DNA of 64,000 nt from assembly GCA_044892525.1 (NCBI GenBank), contig CM097885.1, forward strand, positions 100,068,001-100,132,000, written 5' to 3'. Position 1 is the stretch's first letter; every line of letters begins with the position of its first letter. This document shows positions 5,065 to 61,349 of the stretch, one piece after another. The notes beneath the pieces were generated by a model, which saw only the letters and a program-made list of their open reading frames with translations, ran no database searches and was not told the origin of the DNA. The stretch is from Schmidtea polychroa (taxonomy: Eukaryota). The position numbers and the translations under genes are program-made.

Positions 5065-5661
5065 GTATGTAATTTAAAAAATATTATTTTATTTTTAAAT
5101 ATTTAAAAAAATTCTTAATTGGAAATTATTATTTATTTTTAATTATGAGTGACTCCAAAAACAAAGACTTTGTAATCGATTAATAGTAGAGAATTACGCA
5201 AATAATCCCCGGTAAAATATTACAGATACTGAGATTGAATGAACAAACAGTGAGTACCTCGCTTTGTGTGTGTGTGTGTATGCGCGCGGAAAGCTGTGTA
5301 GTTTCATGTCCACCTAATAGCGCTCAAGTGAATAACAACAGCAGGAATCGCGTGTGATTTTTCCTCATGTTATAGAAATTTAATTATTTCTTAAAGGCTT
5401 CAATTTCGAATCGGAGAGTTAGTGTAATATAATTGTTTAAATTAATGTTGTTGTCATCGTTTTATGTCGATGGAGCAAATGCGATTGATGGATGAACAAA
5501 ATCTGAGGCAGCGTATTAGCAAATAAGCAAAACTCTTTTTTCCCGATTAATTTTAGTTTGATTTCTGCCCAGTTTAAAGAAAGATTTTGTTTGTTAATTT
5601 TTTTTTAATGAAATGGAAAGTAAATTTTAAAAGATTTTTTAATTATATTTCTGGGATACAG

Positions 5662-26600: not shown

Positions 26601-29600
26601 GATATTGTATGTGTTGTCTTTGTGCGCTATAGGTCGATTATATTATTAATAAAAATTGCTCGTCTCACCATTTCATTGGACTCGGATATTGTGAACTCTT
26701 AGTATTATGTTGTGACCTTGGGGCTTCGCACGAACGATAAGTAGGTCGTGGTCTCAGTCGATTTAATTATTCGTATTGACACCACATGTAGACAACGCGG
26801 ATGTTGTTCATTACTCCACACGTCACTAAGAAGTTCCTGAGAAACATGTTGGTAAAACTACTCTGTATACACGGTTCAGTACAACCATCACTCCTGGTTA
26901 TATATCATTTTATTGGCTTGCATTTGTAGTTGGGTGTTGGCCCGAAAATTACGCTTTAGAGCGCAGCTGTATATAAATTAGAATTTAACTCTCGGCATCT
27001 TAGAAATATCTGAGATTTGTTAGACAAAACCGATATCTTTGCTTTAGAGTTTTACTTGCGGCATTTTTGGGGTATTAGAGTTTGCGAGTCTTTTATTATA
27101 AATTGTAGAATTCATATTTGTGTAGTTATAATTTAAATATTTTATTATCAAAAGCGAGTTATTTCATTTACTTATACGCGCTATATCTTGTGGCGTCAGA
27201 TAGTGCGAATTGTGTTTGATCGTTATCTAGCAGATCAACCTAACAGTTGTAGAAAGGAGGTTGTTAATGAAAAGCACATATTTACATTTACGCAATATAT
27301 TCAATTCATTTTAAATCAGAAAATAATAAAATTAAAAAATTAATTCATTATACTAACCTAATTGATTTGAATTAACCCATGATCCGACTCGAAGAATTGT
27401 ATTGTTATTCCGGATCCCTAAGAATGATCGCCAAACCCGAAGTCTTTGTGTCAAAATGACGGTCAGCATTTATAAAGTTAAATTTTTCATTTCTTTTAAT
27501 TATACTATGTTCGGGAAGTTCAACCACCCAAGTGACTTATCTAATTTATTACAAGAGTATTTGTGATTTTCTTAAATTTCTCATTCATTCATTACTTTAA
27601 AGAAAAATTTTCTCTTATTACAATTTTGGTGACAAAATGTTTTAATAATAAATAATTTTCATTTTCATTGAACGTAATAATTGCAGAGTCACAGTAGCTG
27701 ACATCTCATATTATTCCTTGAAACATTTCTATCGACGGTGACTAGTTTGATATATTTTTTAAAGCTATGAAGTTCGAGACTATTTGATATTTTAAAGTTT
27801 TATTCAGATCATTGACCATTCAACTGCCAATGATGAAATGGGTTTTGTCGTTGAGAATTATCCTATGTGTGATTATCTCAAAAAACTATTAATTCGATTG
27901 AAACAGTTCAAAGACAAAGAAACAATGAATTCAGTTTTAGAAAACTTCAGTGTTTTTCAAGTAAATAATTTTTGGAATTTATTTTTAGAGGATAAAGATC
28001 ATAAATTCTATATGATCAAAAGACACGGATGTCGTGTGGAAAGTAGAATTTTAAATAAAGTATTGATTTGATGAAATTTTTAAAATATACTCGATTAAAA
28101 ATTACAAAAAAAAATTACAACCATTTATTTATTATGTACGATAATATTTAATACAACATATTTCAAAACTTTGCAGTTTCTATAATCTAAAAAATCAAAA
28201 ACATTGCATTATAAGAAGCACACAAATTTAATACACCAAACACCACTGAGAACCATTTCCTATAATATAACAAAAAAATCAATAATCTTACATTATAGAA
28301 ACATACATACTTACTTTAAAAAAAAAAAAAAAAATCAAATTTTATTTTATTAAATTTCTGGGGCCTCCTGGCCAAGAAGGGGAGATCGATTCTCACCCTT
28401 ATGTAATCTGAAGCTTTTATTTGAATAAATAATGGATGCTGGAGTGTAATACTCCTACATCAAACGTTCTGTAAGAGTTCTGTCAGGTTCGGTATTAGTT
28501 GTTGATGTTAGCAATTGTTAGGAGAGGCTTGTTAAGGCTTCTATCAGGTTCAGTATTGTTAAGGCTTCTGGCAGGTTCAGTAGGAGAGGCTTGTTAAAGC
28601 TTCTGTCAGGTTCAGTAGGAGAGGCTTGTTAAGGCTTCTGTCAGGTTCAGTAGGAGATGCTTGTTAAGGCTTCTGTCAGGTTCAGTAGGAAAGGCTTGTT
28701 AAGGCTTCTGTCAGGTTCAGTAGGAGAGGCTTGTTAAGGCTTCTGTCAGGTTCAGTAGGAGAGGCTTCTATGTGGTTAGGAGCACTAGCCCTAAGCTATC
28801 TGGGGTGATTTTTCGTCTGCGGGACTCTAAAGAAATGTAATAAGTGAGAGTAGGAAGACTCCATTTGTGATTTTTATCACGCTGAAATAGTGCTACTCTA
28901 TTATAATATATATTAGAAGGATGGTGTAGACGCAGTAATACAGATATAGGTGAATGCTTATATTAAATATATGAACGACTAAAAGTTTACTATCAGTTAG
29001 GCGGAGTCCCTACAAGGACTCCTACATTGACCCACTGATAGTAATTATACACATAGGAGATATTTTCCCCTCTATTATTCTCTCAAGGCCAGGTGTGTTG
29101 GAGGGTAGTGCTATACAAATGCTGTGACCCCCTAGGGCGTCTTGGTTGGTCCAGGCGGGTTTCGATTCCCATACTCTATTGGATGTATCATATAGGCTTG
29201 TTCAGATTGGATTGGAGTCTGTTCTTGTTAGGCTAGGCTAGAGTAAAGTCCGTCATTCGTCTTAGAGTGTGTTTTCTGTGTAATCGTCATCATTTTTTTG
29301 GCGGATTTTTAGGCTAGGCTTGATTGTCGTCGATCACTCATTAGAAATTGTGCATCAGTGCTCTCATCATCTTTATTAAGAAGGTCCTGAAAATACTTGT
29401 ATGGAGCTGGAAGACTCCGGTAGTGCGATGATATACATAGACNNNNNNNNNNNNNNNNNNNNNNNNNNNNNNNNNNNNNNNNNNNNNNNNNNNNNNNNNN
29501 NNNNNNNNNNNNNNNNNNNNNNNNNNNNNNNNNNNNNNNNNNNNNNNNNNNNNNNNNNNNNNNNNNNNNNNNNNNNNNNNNNNNNNNNNNNNNNNNNNNN

Positions 29601-32600
29601 NNNNNNNNNNNNNNNNNNNNNNNNNNNNNNNNNNNNNTAGCTATTAGTTGGCTATAGTAAGTTAGTTATTTGTAGTTATTTAGTTATAGGTTTTGTAAGG
29701 TTAATCCAAAGGAGGTTAGGCTGCTTTAGTTGTGGATATAGTTATATAGTATTGCTTAGTAGTTTAAAAGAAAATATATTTATGAGCTATTTATAGTATA
29801 ATGATAATGTACAGTATATAATATGGTAATGCTTTGTTTAGGTAGGTATATATAATAGTAGAGGATTAATCCTTAAGAGTATGTTCTCTAAGTATGTGGT
29901 AGCTACTCACCACTGCGGCTGTGCAGGCTTTCTGTGACAGTCCTTTAATTTCAGATTTAGAGAGTCCTATTTTCCTAAGTATCTGGTCATTGTTAGAGTC
30001 CCAGGAGCCAAGAGTGCCAATTACAAGTGCGGAGATGGTGGTTTTGACTTTATGTGCCTTTTCAATTTGGATGGCCAGGTTGGCATATTTTGCATAGTTA
30101 TCATTGGTCACCCTTTTAAAGTTTTCTCTCTGTTCATAGGGAACTTTGATATCTAGGATGTGGTTATTGTTGTTCCTCATGGATCTTATAATGAGGTCAG
30201 GTTTGAGCAGAGTGGGTATGCCAAGAGGAGTTATTTCGATGTCTAAGTAGAAGTTGAGGTTAAGGAGAAATTCACTAACGGCATCTAAGACCCGGGAGTG
30301 TTTGTTTCTACGCGCGTTTATCTTTGCTGGACAGTGGTTAAAGATATGCGCTTGGGTTTCAGGGTGTGAGTTACATTGTCTACATTGTATAGATTTTTTG
30401 GATTTAAGTCTATGGGGCGTAAAGTTTAGTTCTAGAAGGTTGTTACGTGCTCTGATAAGGAAGAAGAATTGGGTATCAGTCAGAATATCGGTTTTTATGA
30501 GGTAGCCAGCTGTGGTGCTATTACAAATTGATTTTGCAATGTGGCCTTGGTGCGTTAGGAGGGCCCATTTTTCAGTGTGTATGAGGCTAATGATGGAATG
30601 AATTTCAGAGGAGATAGTGTTTACATTGTCACTTTGGAAGTAATTTATCCTGTCTTTGTATCGGATTTCGAGCTGATATGAGTTGTCTAGTAGGAGGATT
30701 TTAGCATGAATTCCATATTTCCGACGGAGTAGGTCAGCAGATTTTTTAAATTTTAGAAATATTGAGCGGTGCTGGAATGATTTTGAAGTATTGCCATTAA
30801 TCCAGTAGAGAGCTGCTTCAAGATTGCCCTGGCCTCTTGCTAGTGCAAGTTCTGAGAGGATAAGGTTGCGGAAGGATGTATCTGTAGAGTTTAGTGCACG
30901 AGAGAGGTGTACAATGCCTTGAGTTATATATTCATCAATGGCTGAGGTGAGACCCATCCCACCCATTTTTATCGAGGCATAGAGAAAGTTATTATTTATT
31001 TGGAGTAACCGATCTCCGAGAGCTATTTTTATTAGTTTTCTGATCTTATTGTCAAAGCCTTTTTGTGGGTTCCTATCTTTTATGATGTTGTTTTTATGGG
31101 ATTCAAGAATGTTGTGGAGTATTTCACAGTTGCGGAAAGGGAAGATAAGACGTGAGTGGATAAAGATTTTAAAGGCATTAATTTTCTGGGATGGATGAAG
31201 GTGTGATTTGAGAATTTTTTCAGTATCCGTGAGAGCACATTCGAGTGTTTCATCAATATTGTGTCGTTTTTTGAGGGAGAAGTCAACCCCTAGGTATCTG
31301 TAGAAGTTTGAGTCATCTACCTTAGGAATGATCTCGTTATAAAGTTTTATGGGGTGGTAGCTTGAGTTATGGTTAAGATGGAAGTAGCCAGATTTAGAGG
31401 GTTTAAATTTGAGGTTGGCTAGTGAAGCAAGGCGGATAGTTTCAAGTAGGGCAGAGTTGATTGAGGGGTAAGAGTCAGATATAAGTACTATGTCGTCAGC
31501 GTATGCGAGGATACCTATATTCATTTCTCCTAGGATAAAGGGGTGAGAGATTAGGATGTTTTTAATAATGAAGTCTATTGAAAGACAGAAGAGAGTCATA
31601 GATAAGGGGCATCCTTGTTTTACCCCTTTAAGAATCGGAACAGAAGGCGAGGTTTCCCCTTCACAGTCGAAGATGGTGTTAACTTGATCGTACATGCTTT
31701 TAATAAGTTGGATGGAGTTTGGGTGAAGGCCCATTTTAGATAGTGTGTACCAGATAAGGTCATGTGGTAAGGAACCAAAGGCATCAGTGATGTCTAACCA
31801 AATAATATGTAGGTCAGATTTATTGCGATTAGAGGCATCTTTGATAAGTTGAAGGATAAAGTTGTGTTCAGCGCAGCCATCAGGGGCACCAATTGCTTTT
31901 TGATTGTTAGAGATAAGATTACCTTCCTTAATCCACCCCAGGAGTCTATTGTTGAGGAGAGAGGAGAAGATACGATAGATGGTGTTCATAATGGATATGG
32001 GTCTCCATGAGCTGGCTTCATGGCTAATTTCATTTTTCCCAGCTTTGAGGATAAGTTTAGTACGGAAGGTTTTCCAAGAGGATGGACATATGGAGTTCCG
32101 TTGGATATTGTTGCATATCGATAGTATTAGTTCATGATCCGGCGATATTTTCTTCCAGTTGGCAAGGGTAATAAGGTCAAGGCCAGGGGCAGTGTTTGCA
32201 AGTTGGGATAGGATGTATTTAATATCATCAAGATCAAATGGAGTGGAGGAGTAAGTTTCAGGATATGAGCATTGAAGGTTTATGGAGAAAGTTTGGCAGG
32301 TGGCTATGCCTCCTGCAAAGAGTTTTAGAAGATTTTTCATAGTGGGTTTTTGAAAACAGGTTTCATTATTTAATATTTTGCTTATTTCTTCCTTTGGATT
32401 AAACTTATACCTATTTCTTTTGACAAATAGTAGTTCATTGGCATTTTTCCTCACTTTATGGGTGATGTCTGCAGGAATTTTATTGATGTATTTTTTAGGG
32501 TTAATGTTTTCATTAATTTTATTAATTTCGCAAAGGACTGATTCACAGTCTGTTGTATCATTATTTAGATTAATTATAAGGCTACTGATAAATGGGCGAT

Positions 32601-35600
32601 ATTTTCGCACATCATCACTAGCCATTCTGTTAATTAGTATTTTTTTAATTACAATTTTAATCCTATTAATCATATTCTGGATGTTAGGTGAGGTGATCCT
32701 ATCATTTTTCATGAGGCATTCAATCATGTGGCATATAAAGAAGGCTGATTCATTAGGAGTGCTGCATCTAGGATATTCGGGGTATTGAAGATGGATAGTG
32801 ATAGGGGAGACAATTTTCTGTAGGTCTAAGATGGTTTCAAGGATACTATTGGCAAGTGAAAGGTGGATAGAAGGACTTTCATCGGTTGTAGGGTCAATAA
32901 GTACTGCCAGCTTTCGGCGTTTGTTTAGGAAGAAGAAAAACCAATTGTCTTTAGCATGACACATTGGCATGATGATCTCGTTCCAATCAGAGAAGTCTTT
33001 GAAAGGAAAGGTTTCAAAGAAGGTCTTGTAGTTGTGTTGTATAAGAGCGTTACCTATATAGGGGTCCACGAAGATGGTGGTTGGTCTGATGGCAAAGGAA
33101 AAGATGAAGGCCTTGATAGAGTGCTGTGACCATCATGCAGCCTCCTTATCAATATTATTAGTAAATAGTATATTGTCAGGTATGTCCCTATTTATGATTT
33201 CATTATTTAGAGGTGATAGGATTGCCTCTTGCGTATCCAGAATATCATTAAAAAGGTTATTTTTAGTATTAATATTTACGTTATTACTGTAGTCATTATT
33301 CACGGGGCTATTAAAGGTCTCCTTATTGGGGTGATGATCCTCAATATGGTTTTTGGAGTCCTGATATTCTATCCACTCTCCACAGAAGCAATTAATTTTT
33401 AGATTGATGTCGAATTTTAAATTTTTATGATGTTTTATCATATGTGTATTTATTGTATCTAAAGGTGTGTCAATGTCGAAGGATTGGAAGCACTTGTTGC
33501 AGTTTTTGTTTAGATTGTGGCATAAAAAACGGTTTGTGGAAGTAATTTTCAGGGTAATAGTCTTAAGGAAGTCCTTGTTTACACTACAGTGGTGCTCAAA
33601 TTGGTCGATGTGGTTATATAGGTTTCTAAGGGTGATGGTGTTCAAGGTAGATCGGCTTCCTTCCCCTTTGGGTCTACATTGGTGGCAGTCGATCAAAGAG
33701 TCGTAGGTTATAGCGATGTTGTGAATTTCTTGGACGTGTGACCTAATCCTATCAATATCAGTGGCAGAAATTTGTCCACAAAAAGAAGTATGGTGGCATC
33801 CACGGCACTGTAATTTGCCCCGTAGATCAAAGTAGTATAATATTTCATCATTTATGTCTTTGGACATTGTATCTTTATTTATTATAGTTTTTCTCGTCTT
33901 TATGAGGTCTAAGGTGGGGGGTTTAAGAGTGTACGTTTTACCTCTAACCTCTAGGCTTTTTTGGAATTTTATGTCGTTTCTGTGGTGGATGGGAGTGGAT
34001 GTGGTTGCGTATTTTGGTGTCTCTTTAGCAGAGGGTATAGTTTCTTTCAGGTTTATAAGGTTTGGTGATTTACGTTCAGTGTTTTCGACAGGGATAAGCC
34101 TTTAGGAATAGGGTATGATCTATCAAGGTCAATGTTTTCGGAGGAATGAAAGTTGTAGGTTTTCTTTTCTTGCCTAACAGGGGTTATGGTTGCAGAGTCA
34201 TCTAGCGGTGATGGTCTAACTGAGGGATATATTTTGGGTTCCTCAATTGAGTCGGTAGGTAGGGTAAGGTTATAAGAGTTGGATTTCTCAGGCAGAGGAG
34301 GTGAGGGGTTGTTAGTAAGAAGGGCTAAGAGAGGGGCGTTTGAGGAAGGAGGTTCATTGATAGAGCTTTGGTCAGAGGCACTGCTAGAGAGTACGACGTC
34401 ATCACAGTCGGAGTTGAATAGATCGCTTGGGTATTCTGGAGGTCTAACATCCTCTCGGTCTGATATAGGGGATTCTATTGTGTCGTCAAAGTAGCAACTA
34501 TAATGTGAGGTATCTATACTAATTTTGGAGTGTTTCGAGGAGGAAGTGTCTATTTCAGAGTCATTGGGGATTGATGAGCTGTAGGTTGATGAGTTGTCCT
34601 CATCTATATTGGAAGAGACTGAATCGTATTTTGTGTTGAGAACTTTTGTTCTCTGTACTTTCTTGAGCAAGTTTTCATTAGGGCGAATTTCTTTGGGAGC
34701 AAATGGGTTTGGAATTGGTTTTGAGTAGTGTGTTCTATGCGAGGTGTTGATGTTAGTCTTTTTGCTAGTGGACTGAGTGTCAAGGTTGTAGCCTAGTTTT
34801 CTCGGTTGTCTTGGAAAATTGACAGATGTTTTAGGAGGTTCATTAATTTCATGACTATTGGTTTCAATAAGGGCAGCATATCTATTATTTATTAGTCTAT
34901 TATTCAGGTTGTTATTCTTCTTATGGGGGTAGGTGCTTTCAGGGAGAGTGGATACCATATCAGTGCTCAGGATACATTCAGGGGGTTCATTTCTGACAAC
35001 GTTCACATTAGTGTCATAAGTAATCTTTGAATTATCAAGCTTCCTTTCAACGTTGGTATTTAGTGGGATCTTGGGTAGTTCCCCCCGATTACTGTTATAA
35101 GCTTTATTTATTATATTATTATTAGATAAAATATTGGCAAATAGATATGGGGTAAATTGTTTGTAATTTATTGATAGAATGTAAAAAAAATTTTTAACAA
35201 TATAAAAATTATTATTTCTATTATTATTTTTTAAATGACAGTGTAAGTCCTTGAATAGGTTTCTAATTAAATTTTTTAGGATGTCATATGAATTTTGATT
35301 TATTTTGGTTATCGTATTATATAGGTTGGGTATTAAGTTAATATTGAATGGCGCAGTTTCTTTAGTATTATAGGTATTTAATATATCTATTAAAATGAGG
35401 TAATTCGTGTTGAGGTCAATAAAAATGGATCTATATATTTGCGGGAGCACTCTTATATTATCTTCTTTAAGGAATATGAATTGTTTAGTCAATTCTCTGA
35501 AAAAATTATCGCCTATATTTCCTAGGTATGTAAAGTTGACCTGAGTCGTGGTATTTGCTGGGTTTAGAAGGGGTTTATCGATGGGATGTGAAATAGGTTT

Positions 35601-38600
35601 AGAGCTAAGGCTGGTATTCTTATTAAGGTTTAAGATTTGGGCATACTTCATAGTTGGGACACGGTTGGGTGTACGTTTCTATGGGTCAATAGTTGGTCTA
35701 GTACTAATATTCTCTGGGAGTCGGCCTCGGGCCGACGAGCTGCGTAGCGGCATCCTTTCGTCCTCCAAAGGAGGACGAAAAATTTTTTTGCTTTCATAAT
35801 TTCTGGAATAATTTTGGTCTTTTTTAAACAAATCTTTTTTAATTAAATTATCGCCATTTTTAAATTTATTTAATTTGGTATTTATATTAATATTATTTAA
35901 GTTACTTTTTTCATTTAAAAAATATGATTTTATGTTTACGGATTTATTTTTAAGGTTTTTCTTTACTGGGTTTTTATAATTATTATTCTTAATTTTATTT
36001 TGATTAAAAATTTTATCTTTATTAAATTTCACGTGTTTATTTCTATTATAATTTAAATAATTATGTTTATCAAATAGTTCGTTTTCATAAAATGGGGATT
36101 TATTTCTGCTTTTATTTCTATTATCATATACATTTAAATAGTTAATTCTTTTATTGGTATTATTTTCATTAAATAAAGAGTTATAATTTTCATTAAAATT
36201 ATCTTTACTATATATTACATTTTCATTAGTTCTTTTATTATTATGAATTTCATTTAAGTAATCATTATTATAATGCATTATATTTTCATTAATTCTATTA
36301 TTAGTATGAGATTCACTTAAATAATTATTTCTATTATACATTACATTACTATTGAAATTAAAGTTAGAATTGTAAAGATAATTCTGATCATTAGTTACCT
36401 TCTTTTCCCATGTGTCCTTTATTCGAAATAAGGTGTTTATGAATTTATTGTGTTCATTTTGGTTGATAGGCATGCCTCTGCATTGGGGCATAACCAAGCA
36501 GTAGGCGTAATTGAATGCTTTCAGACTGGCCTGTTGAATCTTGTGTCCAATTCGGTTCCAGTATTCTAGTAGTGTATCGTCAGTTAGATATATCCTTCCT
36601 GAAAGATAGTTAACGAGTTGATTAAAAATAGTGAACTCATGGATTTCAGCCCAGTGCTGTATGAATGTTATATCTGAGGAATAAAATTTTTTTGCTTTCA
36701 TAATTTCTGGAATAAAAAAAAATTACAACCATTTATTTATTATGTACGATAATATTTAATACAACATATTTCAAAACTTTGCAGTTTCTATAATCTAAAA
36801 AATCAAAAACATTGCATTATAAGAAGCACACAAATTTAATACACCAAACACCACTGAGAACCATTTCCTATAATATAACAAAAAAATCAATAATCTTACA
36901 TTATAGAAACATACATACTTACTTTGATTTCACGTTGATGTTCTCATTTATAGCTCAATGAGATACATCTTATATTATAGAAATCTGAAAAGTGGAAGTA
37001 AAATTAAAAAATGCACACAAGCACAACACATAATAAAAAACACATACAAACTTTTGATTCGTAAAATTGTAACGATGATAATAATTCTATTTTAGACAAT
37101 TTTTAGAAAAAAAAGATCGTTGAAAATTTTTTAAATTATATTTTTAATGAAAATATCAAGAGCAGATGAATTTGGTTCAAAATCTTTTTACTCCAGATTT
37201 GATTTCCTTTAAGAATCCCCTCATATTGAGCTCAGAAAAAAAATTACAAAAATTAAAAAAATTATTCTAATCCGCGATTTTTCCCAAAATGTTTTAAAAA
37301 AATACATTGATTGATTTATTTATTTAATTAATTATAATTAAAAATATATCGGACTCACAATTTTTCGAAATAATTCCAAAATACTTTAATAAAAGACATA
37401 AAATTCCTAAAAAAGCCTGAAAATTAATTAAAAATAATTTATAATTATATTGTTGATTAAAAGTAATATTTAAGAACTTGAATAATGACCTCATATCCAT
37501 ATGGATCAAAATTCAAGTCTTAAAATTTACTTTAAATTTAATATCTTACCTGAAAACCATTTCTAAAATGGCTAAAATAAATTTCATGATGAGTAATTCA
37601 TACGTAAAAAAATTATTGACAACTTTGAAAATTCATCAGTAGTAAATTGGTGAGTGAGCAATTGCTCTACCACCACTATAGAGAATGTATCTCAGTGGTG
37701 TTGGTAATTTTACACCTGTTTGCAGGATATAATAACCTCTGTAATATAAAAAAAATAAATACTCTAACAATATGAAAACACAAACTTACCTGTGTGTTGA
37801 ATGTTAATGTTTCATGAATGACAACATAGAATTCGAGAAAGGAATAGAAAAAAACTTTGTATACACTTCTTTGAGCTTCTCCAAGATGGTGGTACTGTAA
37901 ACTCTTATCGATACACAGATTTCATTTAAAATGGGATGACGTCACTTAACATTGATGTTGTGCGAAGACACTTGATTTTTCGTATGAATGATAAAGCTAC
38001 TCCGCAAGAAGTTATTGCCACTAAATGTTGTGTCAGCCATTTTATTCCACTGGTGTGAATTTGGATGACCGGTGCATTTTCAAGAAAGTTGAATTCTTTG
38101 GAAGAAGCAAATATTTTGAAAATATCAATGAAACAGTGTCTTCTAGAGTTTAAAGCTGAGTTTTCCCTAGGGAAATTAACAAAGGAACTTCAAAAACCTG
38201 GAAAGCATTGTGAAGAATTTATTAAACAAAATGAAAGCTATACATAAACATTGTTTGCATTTGTTGTTTATGATAAATATGTTCGGTTTTATAAATGGAA
38301 ATTTTTTGGGACACCCTGTAATAATAATTAGATAATAGGGTTTTTGATATCCACATAAATAATAAATATGTTTATGATGTATTTGGAAGTCGATTTGTGG
38401 ATGTATGCAAGTTGGGCTCTAGTGGAGTAGGCACTGCCAAGGTGGTGCTAAAGTTTATTTGATTTTAAAAACAAAGTCCCGGAGAAAAATTCGCTACATT
38501 TTTTGTATCTCTACGTTGATAATCAAGCACGAGATGAAGTCTCCAAATTTGTAAAAAAAAATTATAATTTATATTTACAATTACAATTTTATGCAAATGA

Positions 38601-41523: not shown

Positions 41524-42401
41524 TTTATATGTATTTAGTATAGAGCGTGATACTTAATCATGTATACTATACATTGTATACTATAGATTAGTTTTTAAAA
41601 GTCCATTACAAGTTAGCTCGTCATGCGGGTTTAATGGAGAATTTTTCTTTAATGAATTTATTTGTCATTCCCAGTTTAAAATTACTACATAAAATTTTTA
41701 TTCAATCGATAAATATTAGGTCACAGTGGGAATGAGGTATTTAATGAAAAATTTTAATTGGGTATTATTTAACATGAACTGATAGTTCCCTCGTGTTATT
41801 TTATTTTTTCGATTCAATATTTCACCGAATTATGTAAAAACCTGATTTAATAGGGTTTCGATTTATATGTATTTAGTATAGAGCGTGATACTTAATCATG
41901 TATACTATACATTGTATACTATAGCAGTGTTTCTCAAACTATGGGTCGCGAAAGAATTTTTGGTGGGTCGCGATGACTTATGGAAAGATCTACAAATATA
42001 AATTTTGGAAGTTTAAGCCTTTTAAATTTATTTAATCTTTGTCATGTGGGTCGCAATAAAATTTTTGGCATGAAATGTCAAAAATTTGGGTCGTGATCAA
42101 AAAAGTTTGAGAACCACTGTACTATAGATTAGTTTTTAAAAGTCCATTACAAGTTAGCTCGTCATGCGGGTTTAATGGAGAATTTTTCTTTAATGAATTT
42201 ATTTGTCATTCCCAGTTTAAAATTACTACATAAAATTTTTATTCAATCGATAAATATTAGGTCACAGTGGGAATGAGGTATTTAATGAAAAATTTTAATT
42301 GGGTATTATTTAACATGAACTGATAGTTCCCTCGTGTTATTTTATTTTCTCGATTCAATATTTCACCGAATTATGTAAAAACCTGATTTAATAGGGTTTC
42401 G
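41524..42401. repeat. 338-bp tandem duplication; the second copy carries a MITE
   Basis: Copy 1 41524..41861, copy 2 41862..42401, near-identical apart from the insertion. Confidence 0.92.
41925..42119. mobile_element. 195-bp hAT MITE
   Basis: TIR CAGTG(T/G)TTCTCAAACT; 8-bp TSD TACTATAG; empty site visible in the upstream copy. Confidence 0.95.
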
Positions 42402-42796
42402 GGAAATTTTTACTGGCTTGTTTGTAAAATTGATTCAAACATGATTCCAAGTTCTCGTGACCGTAGAATACTTGAAGCTAGTTTAAACATAAACCCAATA
42501 GAGATATTCATGGCCCAATTTGATTTCAATGAAAACTTAATTCGCTAATAATGCTTTTCCCCCAGTCACTTAGAAATATCGCTATGGCGAAAATAACCAA
42601 TTAAAACAATGCATATAATTAATGAATTTGTTGAATAAAGAATTTGTAAAACCTTTTTCTAAGGTTATCTTTGAACTATTGATATTGAAACTCAATAAAG
42701 AAACATTTGTATGCTTGGATAAAAGATTTAATAATAAACTCACAACCCAAATCATTAATTTATTTTATTAGATATCAACAAAATATTGACCAATAA

Positions 42797-44041
42797 CTAA
42801 ACTGGGGGATCAGATTTCAATTTTCGAAGATCTTCAATTATAATTTTGAAATTGTTTTGCCACATTTGTAAATCTTTGTATAATTTTGTCCATTGATCTG
42901 GACCAAATGAACGCGGCACAGCTCCAGAAATTAAAACCTTTTCATTTTGTTGATCTAATTTGCATGTAACCGCTTGTTGTCGCACAGCTTCAATGACAAA
43001 TGCTTCAAATTCCTCCCTTTCCAATTGTAATTCTTTTTGAATGGTACCATAAGACAATTCAGTTGTATCTCCGGCAGCCAATGTCATTAAGGAAAGTATT
43101 CGGATTTTTGTCATACATGCTTCTTTATCCAATCCATATTTATCCATGAAATCCGGATGGGTATCAAGAAATTTTCTATAGTCGTTAATTGTTCCACTGA
43201 CAAATATTGTTAATAGATCATGGATTGGTTCACCAGTTAAACATTGGACAGGCTTTAATTCGAGAATTTGATCCATGGTCAATGCATTAGGATCTTGCAA
43301 AGCTGCAACAATACATCTAATGGCATCATCCCGAGCATTTGCTGCTCGGTCATCAGTAAATGAACTTAACAACATCATCATACTCTCTGTTGCATATCTT
43401 TCTTCGTGACGCTCAATAAAAATTCTATTAAGTTTGCTTAAAATGTTTTGAATTTGTTCTTGATTACATTGCCATTCTTTCAACCATCCTGATATTTCCT
43501 TTAGATTGATGTTAATTAAATGTTTTTTATCGCTATTAATTTCAGCGTTTAACAAACTTTCATAAGTTTTTATTTTTGTTTCATTTTTTGTTAAACCAAG
43601 AAACAATGAATTAAGTACAAATCTTTTAATTCTTTCTTTTTTCTCATTGTTGCACATTTTCTTTTCAAGAACTTTGCAAAATGGTTCTACAAAGTCAGTT
43701 TGAATATCAGGTTGCATTAACAAAATTAAGGATACAACTGAATTAATAATTCCACCCATATCTAAATCAATTTAGTATTAGTACTTTCATTTCTAACAAT
43801 TCATATCTAAACCTGTATCAGATATCTTATCTTCGAACAAAAGATCGATATTGTTGATAATATGATTCAATGCATCGTGCCATTCTTCCCCCTGCATTAC
43901 GACATCTAGGCACTTCTCATTATCATGGAAGTATTGAAGAATTTCAGATACCTTTAAGAGAATGAATATAATGCATATTAATTTATCACTGTAATTTACT
44001 TGAATAAAATCAGAAGTTTCAGTAAAAATAGACACACTCAT
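42797..44041 (-). CDS. eIF3m: Eukaryotic translation initiation factor 3 subunit M; join(44041..44000,43951..43813,43761..42797), 381 aa
   Basis: INSVVSLILL, ARDDAIRCIVAALQDPN, LKPVQCLTGEPIHDLLTIFVS, KIRILSLM, EAFVIEAVR and SFGPDQW match eIF3m along its length; 48- and 51-nt GT-AG introns, phases consistent. Confidence 0.95.
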
Positions 44042-51898: not shown

Positions 51899-53064
51899 TT
51901 ATAGTCTTGTTTCATAATATGAATATGATGGTGGTTGAACGATAGTTAGTTGTCTCTCTTTTACACATATCAAGATGGTGATGGTTATGAATGTTATTGA
52001 TAAGATGAGAAAATCTGTTATTAAAATGTAAATGAGATATTCACAATAGTTGACTGTCAAATCCGAATTTGTCATCATTAGTTTATTTGAGTTAGGTTTT
52101 GTCGTCTCTTGGGTTGGTAATTGGAAAGGTGATGTGGTTGTATATGATTTTCGTTTCGATTCATTGATTGTCTTGACTTCCACGAAAACTGTTTGCCATC
52201 TGCCTGGTTCGGTTATCCATCGCTGATATTTAACTGTTAATTCCCATGCCGTCTCTAAATCAGAAGTGTAAAGTGTAAAAAAATGATTACCGGCATCTAA
52301 TATAGTCAGTGTTTTTTGTTTGTAGATATTAACAACTCTTTCATCATTTCCTGATTTTCTATATATCGTTACCGGTCCATTTCCAACACTCAGGGTTATA
52401 CGATTTGACTCGTCTCTGAGATAGATAGACTGGGTCTAACTCTTAAATCGTGACCATTGGTTCCTCACTACCGTTCCATTTTCGAGGCATATGTTCTCGT
52501 AGTAGTTTGCATTAATTGAATAATTTTGATTCATTTTCAGTTTCTCAAAGCGGACAAATGATTTTCGCGAGTTAAGGGTGTCGACATTTAACCCTTGAAA
52601 TGTGATTCGCACTTTCACCAAGTCCACTGGCTTCCAATATATATATTGATTCCGTTTATCTCTGGCTCTATTTCGATCAAGTTTCGCATCTCTTTTGTGT
52701 GGACTTCTATCGGAATTTGCGTGTACCACTTTGACATGTTCTGTCTCAACAGCCATTGGTATTTGAAATTTGGCTTTAACTTTCGTACCGCAAAAATATC
52801 TTTATCATAATTCAGTTCTACCACTGGTGCCTTATTGTCTAGTAAATTAATAATTTCTATTTGGTCTGCGATCTCGCATTTACAGCTCCATACTATATTT
52901 GTTAGAGTGGAATATATATGTATTTTCTCCATTCCTCGGATTTTGTTTACCGCATATGGTAAGTCGATCTTTTTGCCGCTCGCGACTGTTACTAACATCA
53001 GCGTTATTGCTACATATAATATCTTATTGATGTAGCTGACTGGTGTTGGATTTTTCGTGCATTT
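51899..53064 (-). pseudogene. Type I membrane protein: signal peptide, FN3-like repeats, S/T stalk, TM, PPxY + PDZ tail (one frameshift at ~52645, one TAG at 52436..52438)
   Basis: KILYVAITLMLVTVASG; NIVW...RKLKPNFKYQWLLRQN; MRNL...INIY/WKP...EKLKMNQNYSINA; YLIYILITDFLILSITFITITILICV; QPPSYSYYETRL*. Confidence 0.7.
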
Positions 53065-54024
53065 CTATTTCAATTTTGTTTGACCCGTTACTTTATTCTG
53101 CTTGGATCTTAAGGGGTATCTAGATTCATCTTCCTCTAGCACTAGTTTACATCGATTTGCATGCACAATCATCGGGTTAGCCTTTTTACTCCTGAATGAT
53201 AATAACTTCAAATTGGTTTCGGTGGTGTCGCACACTTTATAGGATCCTTTAAATGGTCTTTGCAATTTAGGCGATAAACCTTTGAGAGGTTCCGGTCTGT
53301 TAAGATATACTAGATCTCCAATCTTTATGCCATGCGCATGTGCTTTTTTATCGTAGGTTTCTTTATATTTCTCCTGGTTGTGCTTTATTGTCAAACCGGC
53401 TTTAGTCCATACTGACTGCATTCTTTCTTGCATCATTGCTTTATAATCGGGTATCTCCATATATTGTGAAATTGGTGGTTGGAATTTGAGATCAATCGGC
53501 ATATTATTTTTCCTTAAATACATCAAATAAAAAGGGGTCTCTCCTGTACTTTGATTTACTGCATTTCTGTAGGCAAATAGACACGGCTTTATGAAGTCGT
53601 CCCAATCTTTCTGTTTTCGGTTCACATATGATGAGATCATATTTATCAGTGTCCCATTAAATCGTTCCACTAATCCATCCGTTTGTGGATGATATGGTGA
53701 CGTATTCAATTTCCAAATTCCAAATAGGTCTGTGATTGATTTGAACATTTCGCTTTGAAAGTTCTTTCCTTGATCAGTTAACAATTTCTTTGGAGTACCA
53801 TAGCGAAATATTATGTTTTCCACAAATATTCTAGCAATCGTGTCGGCTTTTTGGTTTGGAATAGCGTATGCTTCTGGCCATTTGGTAAAGTAGTCACAAA
53901 AAACAACAATGTATTTGTTTCCTTTTGTTGTTTCCGGTAATGGTCCCAGAATATCCATTGCCGTCATCTCCATCGGTGCTGCAGGTACTGGCATCGGTTT
54001 TAATGGTACTTTAATCTTTTTTTT
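53065..54024 (-). CDS. Gypsy integrase core and GPY/F region
   Basis: AMDILGPLP, LLTDQGKNF, DGLVERFNGTL (D,D-35-E), KLQRPFKGSYKV. Confidence 0.95.
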   Translation of the reverse strand, partial: KKKIKVPLKPMPVPAAPMEMTAMDILGPLPETTKGNKYIVVFCDYFTKWPEAYAIPNQKADTIARIFVENIIFRYGTPKKLLTDQGKNFQSEMFKSITDLFGIWKLNTSPYHPQTDGLVERFNGTLINMISSYVNRKQKDWDDFIKPCLFAYRNAVNQSTGETPFYLMYLRKNNMPIDLKFQPPISQYMEIPDYKAMMQERMQSVWTKAGLTIKHNQEKYKETYDKKAHAHGIKIGDLVYLNRPEPLKGLSPKLQRPFKGSYKVCDTTETNLKLLSFRSKKANPMIVHANRCKLVLEEDESRYPLRSKQNKVTGQTKLK

Positions 54025-55595
54025 TTAACTTTTACACCAATTTTTCACGTCTTGTTCCATTGTTGGCCAAAAGTATTTCAATTTTAATCTTGATAGCGTC
54101 TTGCGCGTTGACAAATGACCTCCCAACGCTCCATCATGATACTGCATCAGTAATGCGTCTCTGTGCTTGGCTGGTATAATAATTAATGCTTCCCCATTTT
54201 TCCAACATTTAAGTATTCCATTATGAATTACATATTTGCTGTTTGCATCTGTGAGTCGTTTCCAGTCTTGTTCTTTTCTTATTTTGACCGCTTGTTCCAT
54301 AAATTGTTTTAATTCACTATCGTTTTCCTGATCATTTTGAAGTTCAGACATATCATTAACTGCTTTGATTGCAGCGAATATAGTGCCTTCCAAATTTTCA
54401 GGTGTCCCTTCACTATCATTTTCTGGGATTCTTGACATTGCATCTGCATTCGCGTTAGCTTTACCTGTCAGATATTTAATCTCAAAGTCGTATTCTTGGA
54501 GGGCAATCGACCATCGTATTAACTTACTGGCTGAATGTCTGTGTTTCATTATGATCTGTATAAACAGTAAATTTTCTGCCCAATAAATATTGTCTAAAAG
54601 TAGTAATTCCATACACTAACGCTAACGTTTCCTTTTCAATCGTTGAGTAGTTTTTCTCGTGAGGCCTCAGTGATCGGCTTGCGTATGCTATTACGTGGTC
54701 CTTTTCACCTTCAAATTTTTGTCCCAACACCGCACCCAATGCAACGTTGCTTGCATCCGTCATCAAGATAAATTGTTTTGTAAAATCTGGACATCTTAAT
54801 ATAGGAGTTGTCACTAATTTCTCTTTTAATGTATTGAAAGCGTTTTGTTGCATTTGTCCCCAAATAAATTTATTGTTTTTCTTTAGTAACGTATTCAATG
54901 GTTGTGCGATATGAGAGAAATCTTTTATAAATTTCCTGTAATAGCTCGCCAAACCAAAAAATTGTCTAACCTCATCGGCATCTTTTGGTACTGGGTACTC
55001 TTCCACTTTTTTGATGTTATCTGGGTTAGTTTGTAACTCTCGCCGTGATATTATATGTCCTACATAAATCACTTCTGCTTTGCCCCATTCACATTTCGAT
55101 GGTTTGATTTTTAATTTTGCACTTTTGAGCCGTTTAAATACAGTTTCTACATCTTTCAGGTGTTCTTCAAAATCATTTGAAAATATTATTATATCGTCGA
55201 TATATACCAATGCATGTCGAATACCTCGTAGCACATAATTCATTCCTCGTTGGAATGTAGCTGGGGCTCCTGTTAATCCAAATGGTAACACATTGAACTC
55301 ATACAGTCCTTTGCCATCCGAGAACGCCGTCTTTCCTCTATCTTCCTCTTTTACTCTAAATTGATTGTACCCTTTGTTTAAATCAATAACAGTGAAATAT
55401 CGTGCCTCTCCCATTTGATTGAACATTTCTTGGGGTACCGGAATTGGATAAGTGTCTTTCCTCGTAACTTGATTTAGCTTCCAATAATCTACGCAAAATC
55501 GTAAGTCTCCATCTTTTTTCTTAACTATCACTATTGATGAGGAGAATGGTGACGCACTATCTCGAATTATTCCAAATTCCTTCATTGCTGTAATC
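54025..55595 (-). pseudogene. Gypsy RT, RNase H and integrase zinc-finger region (small deletions at ~54545 and ~54025)
   Basis: LRFCVDY, VIDLNKGYNQ, PFGLTGAPATFQR, VYIDDIIIF, LMTDAS...GAVLGQ, YSTIEKETLA, YTDH, KLIRWSIALQEY, YHDGALGGH. Confidence 0.95.
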
Positions 55596-58114
55596 CAATG
55601 GTTCCCAACCCGTGGCCCGCCGGGCAACAAAAAAATGCCCTCTCCTCAACAAAGAAAACTAAGAAAAAATTCACATTCACACCTTCTTTGGGAAAGGTTT
55701 GTCTTGAACTTCGTTTAAAACCATGATAAAACCATGATAAAACCAGATGCCAATTTAATAATAAAAGAACTGTGTATCGATTAATTTTGCTTGGTTTTCA
55801 TCAATAATCTGATTTTATTTCAATCTTCTGATTTTTTTTATAAATTCTTTTAATTATCTAATTTGGTTAAAAAACGAGCTCGGAATTTAAAATCATGGAT
55901 AAAAGAAAGTTTGAACAAAATAAAAACTTAGCATGTCGTGAATTTAATGACGAGTGGAAAGATAGGTATATGTTTGCTCTTTGTCGTAACGGAAAGCCGG
56001 TCTGCTTGGTTTGTGGATTTAGCGTTTCAGTTGTAAAGAAATATAATATGGAAAGACATTTCAACAGTAGCCATGCAGATTTGGTCGATAAATATCCAAT
56101 GGCCTCTGATTTACGAAGGGAATTTATCGCCAAGAAGGAGAAAGGAATGAATGTCCAACAATCCTTATTTACTGCTATACTACAGCAAAACAAAAGTATT
56201 GTAATTGCATCGTATGAAGTGGCACTTCTTTTGGCAAAGAAGAAGAAACCCTTTACTGATGGAGAAGAGATTGTGAAGCCAGTTCTTGAAATAGCCGCCA
56301 GAATGCTAGGAGAAAAAAACATTGAAGCCAAGTTTAAAGATATTCCACTATCGAACAATACAATGAAAAGACGGGTTGAGGAACTTTCTAATAACGTTAG
56401 TGAGCAAATTGCATTTCACGCATCAAACTGCAAGTTTTTCTCACTTGCAATGGACGAGTCAACTGACATTAGCGATACCGCACAGGTAACAATTTTTATT
56501 CGCGCGGTGAGTAATACTTTCGAGGTTATCGAAGAGCTGCTTGGACTTGAGTCCATACAAGGGACAACCAAAGGCACAGATTTGTTTGAGGTTTTAAAAT
56601 CATGCGCAGAAAAAAATAAATTGGATTGGAAAAGGTTGGATAGCATTTGCACAGATGGTGCATCAGCTCTAACAGGCAGGCATATAGGATGTTTGTCTTT
56701 GCTCGAAAAATTTCTTGCTCGTCCACTTTTAAATTATCACTGCATTATTCACCAGGAGTCGCTTTGTGGGAAATCCATGAATATGAAGCACGTTATGGAT
56801 GTAGTAGTGAAGTGTGTGAACAAAATCCGTGCAAAATCATTGCATAGGCGAGAATTTAGACAGTTTATTTCAGAATTAGATGCTGAATATGGTGAACTTC
56901 TTCTGCACTGTGAGGTCAGATGGTTGTCAAAAGGTAAAGTTCTGTCGCGATTCTGGGATTTAAAAGGAAGTATTTTGGAATTTTTGGCGGAAATTAATGA
57001 GTTGCCTATAGAACGTGAATATCTTTCAAATAATGAATGGCTGAATGATTTAGCATTCTTGGTGGACATTACAGGGCATCTCAACAATCTAAATTTGAAG
57101 TTGCAAGCAAGTAACAATCTGTTTGCAAATCTGTGTAACTGTATTGCTTCTTTCAAAATGAAATTACAATTATTTGCCAATCAGTTATCCAAAAAAAATT
57201 GGACAATTTTCAACACATGAAAGAAAGGATGACAGGTAATGACTTTGATGAAGACAAATATAGGTGTATGGTTGTCGAACTTTTGACAGCTTTTCAGTCA
57301 CGATTCAGTGAATTTGCAGATCAGTCTGAAAATATGGCTCTTTTTACCAATCCTTTCAACTTTCCAGACAAAAGGATCAACTGCCTAGATGAGAATTTGC
57401 AACTTGAAATTATAGATCTGAAGTGTAACTCAGTTTTGAAAAGTCGATTCGCGAGCTTCCGGTTATTCCAACTGCAGATGATATGATATCATTTTGGAAC
57501 CTGCTCCCAGAGAGTGACTTTGAACATATGCGATTTTTTGCACAACGTTATGTTTGTCGTTTTGGTAGCACATACAGATGCGAGCAGTCATTTTCTGCAA
57601 TGAAATTGATTAAAAGCAAGAATCGTTCACGCCTTACTGATTCGAACTTGAATGGACTTATGATTCTGGCAACAACTAAACTTCAACCTGACATTGAAAA
57701 ACTGGCTTCTAGTATTCAGCCACAAAATTCACATTAAATCCAAATGCCTGTGAATATTTTTATTGAAATTATAAATATATTTTAACTATGATAATGATTT
57801 ATTTCGAAAATCACTATCTCTGGACTTTATTGGTGTTTTATTTAATTCACAATTTCTTTATAAAAGTTAAAAACCAATATTTATCTCTGTAAATTAATTT
57901 ACTAAACTAAAGTTACTAATCAGTAATTTGCCAATTGTAAAATATTATTGTAAATTATGTCATATAAAAAAAGTATCTTGGTTTTTTTCATCTAGGGTAT
58001 TAACTCACAATAAGGTTTCTTTTTCGCCGTTTTTTGTTGTTTTAAAAATTTTGGCCCTTCGTGTCCTCCACCTAAACAAAGTGGCCCTAGGCCAAAATAG
58101 GTTGGGAACCACTG
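55596..58114 (+). mobile_element. hAT DNA transposon (SPIN/Buster/GTF2IRD2-like), 2519 bp, inserted in the Gypsy RT
   Basis: TIR CA(A/G)TGGTTCCCAACC; 8-bp TSD CTGTAATC at 55588..55595 and 58115..58122. Confidence 0.97.
55895..57737 (+). pseudogene. hAT transposase with two frameshifts (~57210, ~57485)
   Basis: BED-like CLVC...RHFNSSH; FSLAMDESTD, TDGA, HCIIHQESLC, CEVRWLS, GSTYRCEQSFS. Confidence 0.93.
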
Positions 58115-61100
58115 CTGTAATCTGTCTATCACTTTCGTCTTGATGAACGTAGGGGGTTCTGTATGGCTTTATTTTTATTGGAGTTTCGTCTAATAACTGT
58201 ATTTCATGCTCAATTACATTGGTTAAACCTAAATCATATTCGTGTTTGGCAAAGATATCCCGGTATTTTCTCAACAGTTTTGTGAATTCCTTTTTCTGCA
58301 TCTCATTTAAATCATTGCTTACCACTTCAGGCTCCTTATACACCTTGACGTTTCTTGGTATTTTACAATTTGTTTCAATAGACATTTTTGATAATTTTCC
58401 CAATTTTGTTTTTGGGTGTAGCTGAACCGGTTTCTTACTGCTATTCGTTATATGGACTGGTACTATCTGATTTTCCACTTGGACAATTTCGTCACATATC
58501 GGTAAATCATATTTTTCGACTAGCGTTTGATTTGGTTCGAATATAAAATCACCATTATCCACACTCATGGTATTTGCACAATATACCATCTCCGATTGTG
58601 GTGGTATTGTCAATGTCTGATTCACAAACACTTCACCTGCCCTGTGAATTATTTCTCCTGTTTCTCCTGCTATCAAATTACCTGTCTTTAAATCAAGTGA
58701 GACTCCGTCCAACTGCTCTAATATATCCATGCCGATCAGACATCGTACTGGACTTCCCTTCATTATGAGCGCATCGTGCGCTATTATTCGATCTCCAATA
58801 TGGAATATGACGTTAAGTTGTCCAATTATGTTTAATTCATTTTTTGATAATGACCTCACTATTTCGTCGGTAGGCTTTATTCGCATTTTTCCCTTCGCGT
58901 TTAGTACATTTTCCGATATTATTGTGTGACTAGATCCCGAATCAACCAAAGCTTCCACTTTATGTTTGTTCATTTGTATAAATATTCGGGGTTGCTTTCC
59001 TCTTTTTGTTAATGTCATCAATGAGTAGTTGCATGGTAAGTCTAACATATTTTTTCTCTCGATCTCTGCGCTAGAAGGCTCGATTCTCTCTCCTACCATT
59101 CCTTCACATTGTAATGCGATATTTTCCACTGGTTTCATCTCTCGTAATCGATCAACTGGATACACTGGTGCTGGTTGCATAAATGATTTTGGTATACACA
59201 ATTTTGTAAACGTGTCTACGCTACTCGCATTCAACAGTGGCTCTTTTAAGATTTGATAGGTTCTTAACGCTTCTTTATTCATTCCACTTAGTTCTTGACT
59301 GTCAACATATAACGGTGCACTATCACCCTCGTTGTCATTGTCATTATTCTCGTCCCTTGAAGGGGTTGTACTAGCGTAGCTCACCTTTTTCTTCTTTAAT
59401 ATTCGAGCCTTGAGTATCTCCAACTCCTGATATTGATGATGAGTAATGAAGAATCTAGCCAATAATGGTACGCAACCAATTACTAGTTTCCACGACCAAC
59501 CTGTGATCGCGTATAATCTGTGTGTTGACAGGACCTGCGATATTATCACTTTGATTACAACACATATTACATAAATTCCAATCAATCCGGCACACGCTTG
59601 TCCAATGAACATAAACTTTCCCCAGATCTTTTTCATTGTATTATACGTCGCTTTCTTGTAATGATCTGGAGTTAACAAATACTCGTAATTCACCTTCCCA
59701 CTTCCGCTTGGGAGAATTGTATCTACCATTTCCATTATTACTCTTTCTTTCTTTGATGGAAATAACAAGTTTCTGCGAGCTTCCCCAATGTCTTCGCTCG
59801 AGTAAATTCCACTTTGCGACAATTTTTCTAACGACGTAAAATTTACCAGATATTGTAATTCTGTCAATTCTAAGTTTTCCGGTGTCTTTACTTCTCGATG
59901 ATCTGGTAATGCAATCCAAGATTCTGGTGTTAGTCTGTATAGTGGTGCCAACAATCTATTGCACTGTAATACTTTCGGTTTCACGTCCTCTTCCAGTAAG
60001 ATTCGTGTTACAGGCTCCATAAATCGCAACTTTCCATTTAAATTCACTGGTAACTCGTTGGTGCATTGGTCATACTTTGTCAGTTTAACTGGTACCGCTT
60101 TACATTTATAGCTATATAGTACTTCACCGAAAATTTTGGCAAACACCCCATTTTCTGTAATTAACATTGGTGCTACCAAATTAGGATTGGTTATAGCCAT
60201 TGCCATCCGATTTCGGAGTATTTCTTTGTTGAGATTGCAATCATTTATAATAACTTCTCGGTACACATTTTCAACAGTATTTTGACCAAAGTGAAATAAA
60301 TAATCTATTTTGTTATTAAAGTAATTTGTCAACTTGATATCTCCGGCATGTATGTTTGTTTGGGCCTCTGTAATCATTTTCTGAGATACATATATACCTT
60401 TATAATTTGTCTCATAGACATTTTGTCCACACTTTGTTTAAGTTTCTTTTCTCAGGAATCGCATCCCATCTTCCTCCGAGGTTGACATTAACACTGTTGG
60501 AGTATCTTTCATCCGTAGAGGTGTGATTCTTGTTGTTGTACTCGTTGCTGGATCCATTCTTATTTTCTCAGGCTTTTCCCTGATCTGTTCTCCCGTTATT
60601 TCTTTAAAACTCATTGACTTCAATTGCACTAAATTGCACTTTTTGGTATCGACATCGTACACCAAGATTGATTCTCCTGTCTGACAGCTAGATTGTTTTA
60701 TGTTGCAGAATGGATGTGTTTGTAGTTTACCAGTATCATCATCAAATGATCCATCAAATTCTCTTAATTCTGACATGTACTCTTCCACAACCACGGCTTT
60801 GTCAATTATAGCATCGTCTACTTTGTATGGCTCTCCTTCGCAATCACCATTCGACTTTATTATCCCTCGCACGGTTACAGTCTCGCGGATTTTGTGGTTA
60901 AGCTTTGCTTGTAGTTTAATATCTGCATTGATTTTCAACTGTCCTGTTTGAAAGGCTGCCAAACAATTCTCTGGAATTATTTCTATCGGTCTAGGTATCG
61001 ATTGCATTTTCACCATCGATGAGTGGCTCCATTTTCCACAATAAAATACAAAAGTAGTTCGTTTCACTGTACACTCTCTCACCTTTGCTCGTCGAAACCC

Positions 61101-61286
61101 CGATTCTTGATATACATGATATTTTACTGAATTTGTCACTTTAAATGTTACTGTGTATGCATCTGAACACTCTGCTACGTTTACCAACGAATATACTCTT
61201 CCCATTTCGGTTTGGGAGCAGTCGTATGCTACCAATGAATTCGTCGTGTTTATTATTCCCAATAACATAATAATAGAAATCATCAA
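58115..61286 (-). pseudogene. Env-like chuvirus/gB-type glycoprotein fused in frame to aspartic protease and the start of RT (one TAA at 60438..60440)
   Basis: Signal peptide then LVAYDC...YQ...C...YCG..SH; GEVLYSYKC..V.V...CTNELPV...FMEPVTRIL...CN.LLAPLY; GIYS.ED; TM ~59615..59538; ALVDSGSSHT and CLIGMDIL. Confidence 0.85.
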
Positions 61287-61349
61287 TCATGGAAATGCGA
61301 GTTTTCCCTTTTTCTTCACTGTCTCTGTTTTTGGGCTCTCATCCTTTTG

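Follow-up and report, generated by a model that had tools for sequence, protein, structure and literature searches.

Known systems and the locus under study

The planarian families LIN24_SM and LIN26_SM insert into the 28S ribosomal DNA (rDNA), end in a variable poly(T) and also occur outside the rDNA (PMC4640811; here and below, published work is quoted from the portions of each source that were available). Variable T tails are typical of their 3' junctions, and of the LIN26_SM copies whose junctions are published, most terminate in poly(T) while some have poly(A) instead (PMC4640811, S6 Fig). The same figure gives blunt junctions for LIN9_SM and implies, in our reading of separate contigs, a target-site duplication (TSD) of about 41 bp for LIN15_SM (PMC4640811, S6 Fig). 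Here we describe an element that appears to be of the LIN24/LIN26 type in a stretch of 64,000 nt from Schmidtea polychroa (assembly GCA_044892525.1, contig CM097885.1, positions 100,068,001 to 100,132,000 of the forward strand; hereafter the window). It is a minus-strand retrotransposon that lacks long terminal repeats (non-LTR) and has a restriction-like endonuclease (RLE), and it is flanked by two identical copies of a 212-bp sequence. The repeat is probably a real duplication linked to the insertion, and the explanation that we lean towards is a single event in which the second nick failed and the distal target end was joined by repair.

TSDs far longer than that of LIN15_SM are on record. 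The R9 element makes one of 126 bp (as cited in PMC6895275, PMC13486585 and PMC9977147), duplications around Dualen-4b_cRei of Chlamydomonas have a median of 900 bp (PMC9977147), and with avian R2 variants that lack second-strand nicking, about 1,000 bp is duplicated inside the transcribed region (PMC13486585). TSDs of more than 100 bp accompany up to 10% of L1 events in HeLa cells and most events in cells deficient in nucleotide excision repair (NER), and have been attributed to a distal, unrelated nick (PMC5223499); L1 TSDs of several hundred nt are mentioned elsewhere (PMC1291365). A first-pass annotation of the window had given the roughly 126 bp of R9 as the longest case known, a statement that the Dualen-4b and R2 figures overturn. 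How the second strand is broken and copied is still considered open for non-LTR elements outside R2 (PMC13486585, discussion). TSD lengths for LIN families are not reported in the available portions of PMC5035012, PMC13580325, PMC13295347, PMC11702581 and PMC7650587. Our search, which covered mostly open literature and did not extend to Repbase Reports, turned up no TSD above 100 bp for an R5/LIN or NeSL-clade element; as evidence of absence this is weak.

A 212-bp direct repeat flanks the element

Positions 28106-28317 and 36714-36925 are identical at 212 of 212 nt, and the match cannot be extended on either side. The chance expectation for an exact repeat of this length is about 1e-110, and a BLASTN comparison of positions 27501-37500 with the 64-kb window revealed no third copy, which bears out the first-pass annotation as regards the repeat itself. 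Between the two copies lie 8,396 nt, occupied by the 8.4-kb element. The left copy, at the 3' tail of the element, directly adjoins a run of 17 A (28318-28334) that reads as poly(T) on the sense strand. The right copy, at the 5' end, starts 3 nt before a donor-like GTAAGT and carries a minus-strand run of nine T at the junction, where it adjoins element-derived sequence whose outermost 31 nt are positions 36683-36713. The last two T of the duplication are also present in the internal source of this sequence (35779-35811), which leaves the 5' boundary with an uncertainty of about 2 nt.

One end of the repeat falls on a nick motif of family type and on the tail, and the other falls on the 5' junction of the element, which ties the repeat to the insertion. 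As had been flagged, an assembly gap lies between the left copy and the open reading frames (ORFs); it comprises 195 N (29443-29637). An overlap between contig ends would place the duplicate at the gap. The actual distances, 1,125 nt to the left copy and 7,076 nt to the right one, indicate that the repeat is not such an overlap.

Coding region of the element

The element contains two long minus-strand frames that overlap by 49 nt and have one in-frame stop each, a two-ORF layout that is also known from R5. The ORF1 frame (34053-36722) is Asn-rich and then Ser/Pro-rich and is interrupted by a TAG at 35679-35681; its upstream 290 codons are open, as compared with a maximum of 174 in 2,000 shuffles. 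No homolog of ORF1 was found in Pfam, in Atlas or by BLASTP among 158 related proteins. ORF2 (29866-34101), with a TGA at 33133-33135, encodes zinc-finger-like motifs (read by eye), a Ulp1-like domain, a reverse transcriptase (RT) with the YADD motif, a CCHC knuckle and an RLE. The RT domain matched RVT_1 of Pfam (E=1.3e-28), and residues C917, C920, H929, C934, D979, D994 and K996, which make up the CCHC knuckle and the PD..D.K motif, were invariant in an alignment of 14 sequences. The best solved relatives of ORF2 were R2 proteins (E=2.9e-51, versus 7.9e-20 for L1 ORF2p), and no apurinic/apyrimidinic endonuclease (APE) family was detected at E<=0.1 in any of the four ORF pieces. With an RT followed by a CCHC knuckle and PD..D.K, and without an APE, the element is an RLE-type non-LTR retrotransposon, in agreement with the earlier assignment.

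The closest database relatives of ORF2 show 30-34% identity and carry PF02902 (Peptidase_C48); no named reference protein of R5, LIN or NeSL appeared among the matches. The Ulp1-like region aligns with these PF02902-bearing relatives; it is without the catalytic His and Cys, and Pfam gives no match for it. A Ulp1-like protease domain upstream of the RT has been described for NeSL and Utopia-1_TSP. Within positions 32653-33132 (minus strand) the catalytic His and Cys are replaced; they are retained in the seven closest aligned relatives that cover the domain, and in three more distant relatives they are likewise missing from the aligned position. Because the RT reading frame runs without a stop for 1,088 codons under table 1, a non-standard genetic code was set aside.

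The 3' end and the target site

The putative 3' untranslated region (UTR; 28335-29865, minus strand) includes a tandem array of a 35-bp unit in 6.1 copies (28556-28767) as well as the gap, and holds no frame of more than 64 codons. Its GC content left of the gap is 0.41, as compared with 0.38 in the ORFs and 0.28-0.31 in the flanks. The plus-strand GC skew of the same part is 0.22, as against 0.32 for the ORFs and 0.04-0.07 for the flanks. This skew, which falls to 0.17 when the tandem array is excluded, is exceeded by 1 of 36 background windows and is weak evidence by itself. TBLASTN with the 158 related proteins yielded no match in the segment left of the gap. The apparent continuity of the element across the gap rests on its terminal motifs, orientation and composition.

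On the sense strand the element ends in a poly(T) tail, here of 17 T (28318-28334), behind a AAAATAAAATTT-type end, as do elements of the LIN24/LIN26 type. The LIN26-like terminal motif, which runs into the tail (28327-28348, minus strand), was identified as a pattern match to the end of LIN26_SM; allowing up to 2 mismatches, it was the single match in the window, where 0.01 would be expected. The putative site of the first-strand nick, GAAATC^A (36925-36931, minus strand), has the core of the LIN24/LIN26 28S site: the tail junction agrees with the published nick core at 7 of 7 nt, and the flanking bases differ from 28S. GAAATCA occurs 26 times in 128,000 strand positions, which corresponds to a probability of about 2e-4 for a given junction and of about 1e-3 if the handful of targets compared is allowed for. 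There is no second GAAATCA near the 5' junction, and none between 25529 and 33195.

Signals of the LIN24/LIN26 type are thus found on both sides of the gap, with the 3' end on the left and the nick site and the 5' leader described below on the right. The 3' end, the nick core and the leader point to an element of the planarian 28S-targeting LIN24/LIN26 type (R5/LIN lineage), and on these three features the insertion would be an off-target event of a 28S-type element. The first-pass annotation had set the site apart from the SL and 28S targets of NeSL and R5. It does lie outside the 28S rRNA gene, since Rfam detected no rRNA family in the window, but it has the GAAATC^A core in common with the LIN24/LIN26 28S site. 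A further site, at positions 5559-5573 (minus strand), is unoccupied and has 15 consecutive bases of the LIN24/LIN26 28S target across the nick; it matches the 28S target better than the occupied site does (0.08 expected at up to 3 mismatches).

The 5' junction

Along the minus strand, the 5' junction consists of the duplication ending in the nine T, followed by a 31-nt insert and then by a 41-nt leader. The leader (36642-36682) resembles the 28S rDNA immediately upstream of the LIN24/LIN26 nick and ends at the nick position. Positions 36642-36658 agree with this 28S sequence at 16 of 17 nt, a match reached in 0 of 100 shuffles, and the last 27 nt of the leader match it at 23 positions when compared by eye with the published junctions (PMC4640811, S6 Fig). 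A pattern search with this 27-nt stretch at up to 3 mismatches found no match, as expected for a sequence with 4. The leader would imply an ancestor whose 5' junction lay at or near the first nick, and its end at the nick position suggests that this ancestor, when on target, made little or no TSD.

The insert (36683-36713, minus strand) is an exact copy of positions 35779-35809, and its internal source (35779-35811, minus strand) is identical to 36683-36715 at all 33 nt. TTATTCC is present on the minus strand of the element only at 35811, in the source, and at 36684, at the start of the leader; the TT of the source also belongs to the T run at the duplication end. Three GC-rich hairpins with 3-nt loops occupy positions 35720-35780, with folding z-scores of -3.4 to -4.0 as RNA and DNA. 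The largest of them (35756-35780, 11 pairs) forms in single-stranded DNA, and the copied stretch terminates 2 nt inside its foot. Such a pattern would be expected of microhomology priming, stalling and template switching. The templated insert, the microhomology and the hairpin foot together argue for a junction that is biological and was finished by repair, although template jumping by the RT would yield the same sequence.

The hairpins are contained in the open frame of ORF1, with its in-frame TAG about 40 nt downstream of them, and match no Rfam family. A ribozyme at the hairpin cluster or at the 5' end was rejected, because Rfam gave no convincing match and no hammerhead core was seen in the hairpins by eye. 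An interpretation of positions 35812-36682 as a nested insertion with a 33-bp TSD was rated lower, as this segment has no tail, begins with the target-like leader of the family and is in frame with ORF1.

These observations bear on a programmed distal second nick, by which the element, like R9, would cut with a stagger of about 210 nt and leave a nearly fixed long TSD in every copy. R9 does so at 126 bp (cited in PMC6895275 and PMC13486585), the sister family LIN15_SM with its implied 41 bp or so indicates that the lineage can stagger its cuts, and the 5' boundaries of LIN24 and LIN26, which are absent from the available parts of S6 Fig, could hide long TSDs (PMC4640811). A family with long TSDs would, however, be expected to gain sequence downstream of the nick, whereas the leader matches the sequence upstream of the nick and ends there, and this weighs most heavily against a programmed stagger of such length. 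In addition, the 5' junction has no target-like motif, and its messy templated structure is more in keeping with repair by the host than with a second nick that was protected. We therefore consider a programmed distal nick quite unlikely.

Integrity and age of the copy

The absence of differences in 2x212 nt limits the divergence per copy to at most 0.7% (95% upper bound), so the first-pass annotation was right to describe the insertion as recent. The copy is nevertheless not pristine, since its coding region of about 6.9 kb contains two in-frame stops. Jointly, the identical repeats and the two stops are most probable near 0.3% divergence, where their joint probability is about 0.04. The copy is thus young, but either it has decayed slightly, or a defective source gave rise to it, or the sequence contains errors.

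Under a simple neutral model this joint probability does not exceed about 0.04, and so low a value could also be taken as a sign of an assembly artefact, in which contigs from different haplotypes or paralogous loci were scaffolded over the gap or the repeat was made by the assembler. The position of the gap between the two junctions and the gapped state of the assembly (2 N runs in 64 kb) point in the same direction. Besides the distances of the gap from the two copies, three observations argue against it. First, each junction lies in contiguous sequence and has its own biological signature. Second, both halves indicate the same LIN24/LIN26 type and the same orientation. Third, a chimera would require two insertions on the same strand 212 nt apart. 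An artefact is accordingly an unlikely source of the repeat.

The host site

The first-pass annotation had placed the insertion in a host intron, which is only weakly indicated. No protein-coding host exons, and hence no protein-coding intron, were recognised beside the insertion, as the adjoining candidate exons have stops in all three frames. Donor-like motifs occur at 37789, 37549 and 36922, all on the minus strand; the nick lies 3 nt before the last of these GT motifs, which was therefore copied by the duplication. A hairpin resembling mir-753, which we take to be a planarian microRNA, is located at 37467-37527 (minus strand), 540 nt beyond the right copy. It scored 58.3 bits against Rfam RF04089 (E=6.8e-12; the gathering score of 62 was not reached) and 37.5 bits on the plus strand, with a folding z-score of -7.0. 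The hairpin suggests a planarian host; our literature search found no paper on mir-753 in planarians. It lies between two donor-like sites and is a candidate unannotated paralog in a non-coding host transcript. From these motifs, it is plausible that the site is crossed by a spliced non-coding transcript of the minus strand. The second strand of the insertion is the one on which mir-753 scores higher and on which the donor-like motifs lie.

Origin of the duplication

Under the explanation that we lean towards, a full-length element of the R5/LIN type, similar to LIN24/LIN26, would have nicked the off-target look-alike GAAATC^A, primed its cDNA there and left the poly(T) tail. Only about 7 nt at the end of this cDNA would have been homologous to the upstream target, the leader being too poorly matched to anneal, and the nearby second nick of the element itself would not have been made or not been used. 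The other target end would have arisen 212 nt away at the run of nine T, either because the host broke the minus strand, which is probably transcribed, or because repair synthesis continued for 212 nt beyond the nick. Microhomology-mediated end joining would then have linked this distal end to the cDNA: the end would have primed internally and copied 31 nt up to the stable hairpin, after which the strand would have switched to the cDNA end, and fill-in would have duplicated the 212 nt. The first-pass annotation had proposed that the element cleaved the second strand about 212 nt from the first nick, which is one of several possible routes and, in our assessment, not the likeliest.

Several points weigh against the failed-nick explanation. 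The evidence comes from one copy with an N gap between its two junctions, and a single copy across an assembly gap is an anecdote. The family assignment is drawn from terminal motifs and not from an RT tree with named references, and transcription of the site is likewise read from motifs only, namely the minus-strand donor-like sites and the mir-753-like hairpin. Rfam does not recognise the leader as rRNA; moreover, the leader is diverged (4 mismatches in 27 nt) and thus records an old state, since when the cleavage geometry may have changed. The available parts of S6 Fig show no 5' boundaries for LIN24, LIN25 or LIN26 and no long TSD for LIN24 or LIN26 (PMC4640811). The duplications of the R2 mutants were obtained in human cells and are roughly five times as long (PMC13486585). 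Finally, positions 41524-42402 of the window hold a tandem duplication of 338 bp, with 2 mismatches between its copies, that contains no retroelement; near-identical local duplications therefore do arise here by other means.

The 338-bp duplication also lends some credit to an origin in several steps, either by unequal recombination between allelic insertions 212 nt apart or by a local tandem duplication before or after the insertion. It does not explain, however, the exact fit of the 212-nt repeat to both junctions, where one end of the repeat coincides precisely with the nick motif and the tail and the other with the 5' junction. Had a duplication been there beforehand, the element would have had to insert exactly at its seam, and no second target motif is present near the 5' junction. 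Such a multi-step origin is thus very unlikely.

We also considered whether this R5/LIN family regularly duplicates hundreds of bases, be it through a programmed nick at about 210 nt, a longer stagger than the 126 bp of R9, or whenever it inserts off target, where the leader derived from 28S would be unable to anneal and the second nick of the element would fail. This seems doubtful. If it were true, a natural series would exist in planarian genomes, with the TSD length changing according to the match to the target, and such a series would be an in vivo test of second-strand completion by wild-type RLE elements.

Other features of the window

Beyond the mir-753-like hairpin, the second copy of the 338-bp tandem duplication holds a 195-bp hAT-like miniature inverted-repeat transposable element with an 8-bp TSD. 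An eIF3m gene is located at 42797-44020 (minus strand); one database protein is 96% identical to it, whereas named full-length matches are about 40% identical and no named match exceeds 49%. Positions 51899-63545 (minus strand) contain a broken and rearranged LTR retroelement with a zinc-knuckle gag-like frame, a protease, an RT/RNase H and an integrase. Upstream of its protease lies a frame for a Monjiviricetes-type fusion glycoprotein (PF24664, E=2.5e-65 and 3.9e-27), which is split by a stop, and the retroelement is interrupted by a Spin-doc/DUF4371 hAT-type gene at 55871-57220 (plus strand). The window starts with a tandem repeat of about 580 bp (1-1430), and a GIY-YIG-like (Penelope-like) fragment at 1691-2179 adjoins the first N gap. 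Two dispersed repeat pairs were also found, 2901-3940/19378-20416 (86-97% identity) and 17661-18364/47477-48180 (94%).

Comparison with known systems

Long TSDs as such are established. Direct repeats of about 200 bp reportedly surround RTE-1 in Caenorhabditis elegans, for which our literature search found no confirmation. Among the closest counterparts of the present element are LIN24_SM and LIN26_SM of Schmidtea mediterranea (R5/LIN lineage, NeSL clade). They have in common with it the poly(T) tail, a 3' motif that is within 2 mismatches of that of LIN26_SM and the GAAATC^A nick, and both families have many copies outside the rDNA (PMC4640811, S6 Fig). By eye, however, the 3' UTR upstream of the terminal motif is unlike the LIN24 and LIN26 ends shown, and the element probably belongs to a different family than either of them.

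With R9 of Adineta vaga the element has in common an RLE-only enzyme and a TSD of more than 100 bp. R9, however, is derived from R2, specific for rDNA and has a characteristic TSD length, whereas the present case is one off-target copy of a Ulp1-bearing element for which a fixed length is unsupported. Dualen-4b_cRei resembles it in the very long duplications that flank a non-LTR insertion, which are variable in Dualen (PMC9977147); Dualen encodes both an APE and an RLE, whereas no APE domain was found in the element of the window. L1 likewise makes occasional TSDs of more than 100 bp, but it is an APE-type element studied in cell culture, and the frequency of its long TSDs is strongly raised by NER deficiency (PMC5223499). 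Long TSDs will be missed by scans limited to about 50 bp, of which PMC13295347 is one example.

The avian R2 variants offer the nearest parallel to the proposed event. In both systems an RLE-only enzyme is at work, the 5' end is joined downstream of the first nick, a large duplication results, and the second strand is probably the transcribed sense strand (PMC13486585). The R2 events, however, were engineered, on target in human rDNA and about 1,000 bp long, whereas the present event is natural, has intact RLE motifs and is off target, with 212 bp. The locus looks like a natural counterpart of the failed second nick in engineered R2, one that keeps a target-derived leader and a templated repair scar, and it bears on the off-target scars of R2-type gene-insertion tools. 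Under this explanation, on-target copies should have a short TSD or none, while off-target copies should have long and variable ones. Our preferred reading of the 212-bp duplication is thus a naturally occurring case of a failure mode that is already known, here in a lineage for which we have not found it described.

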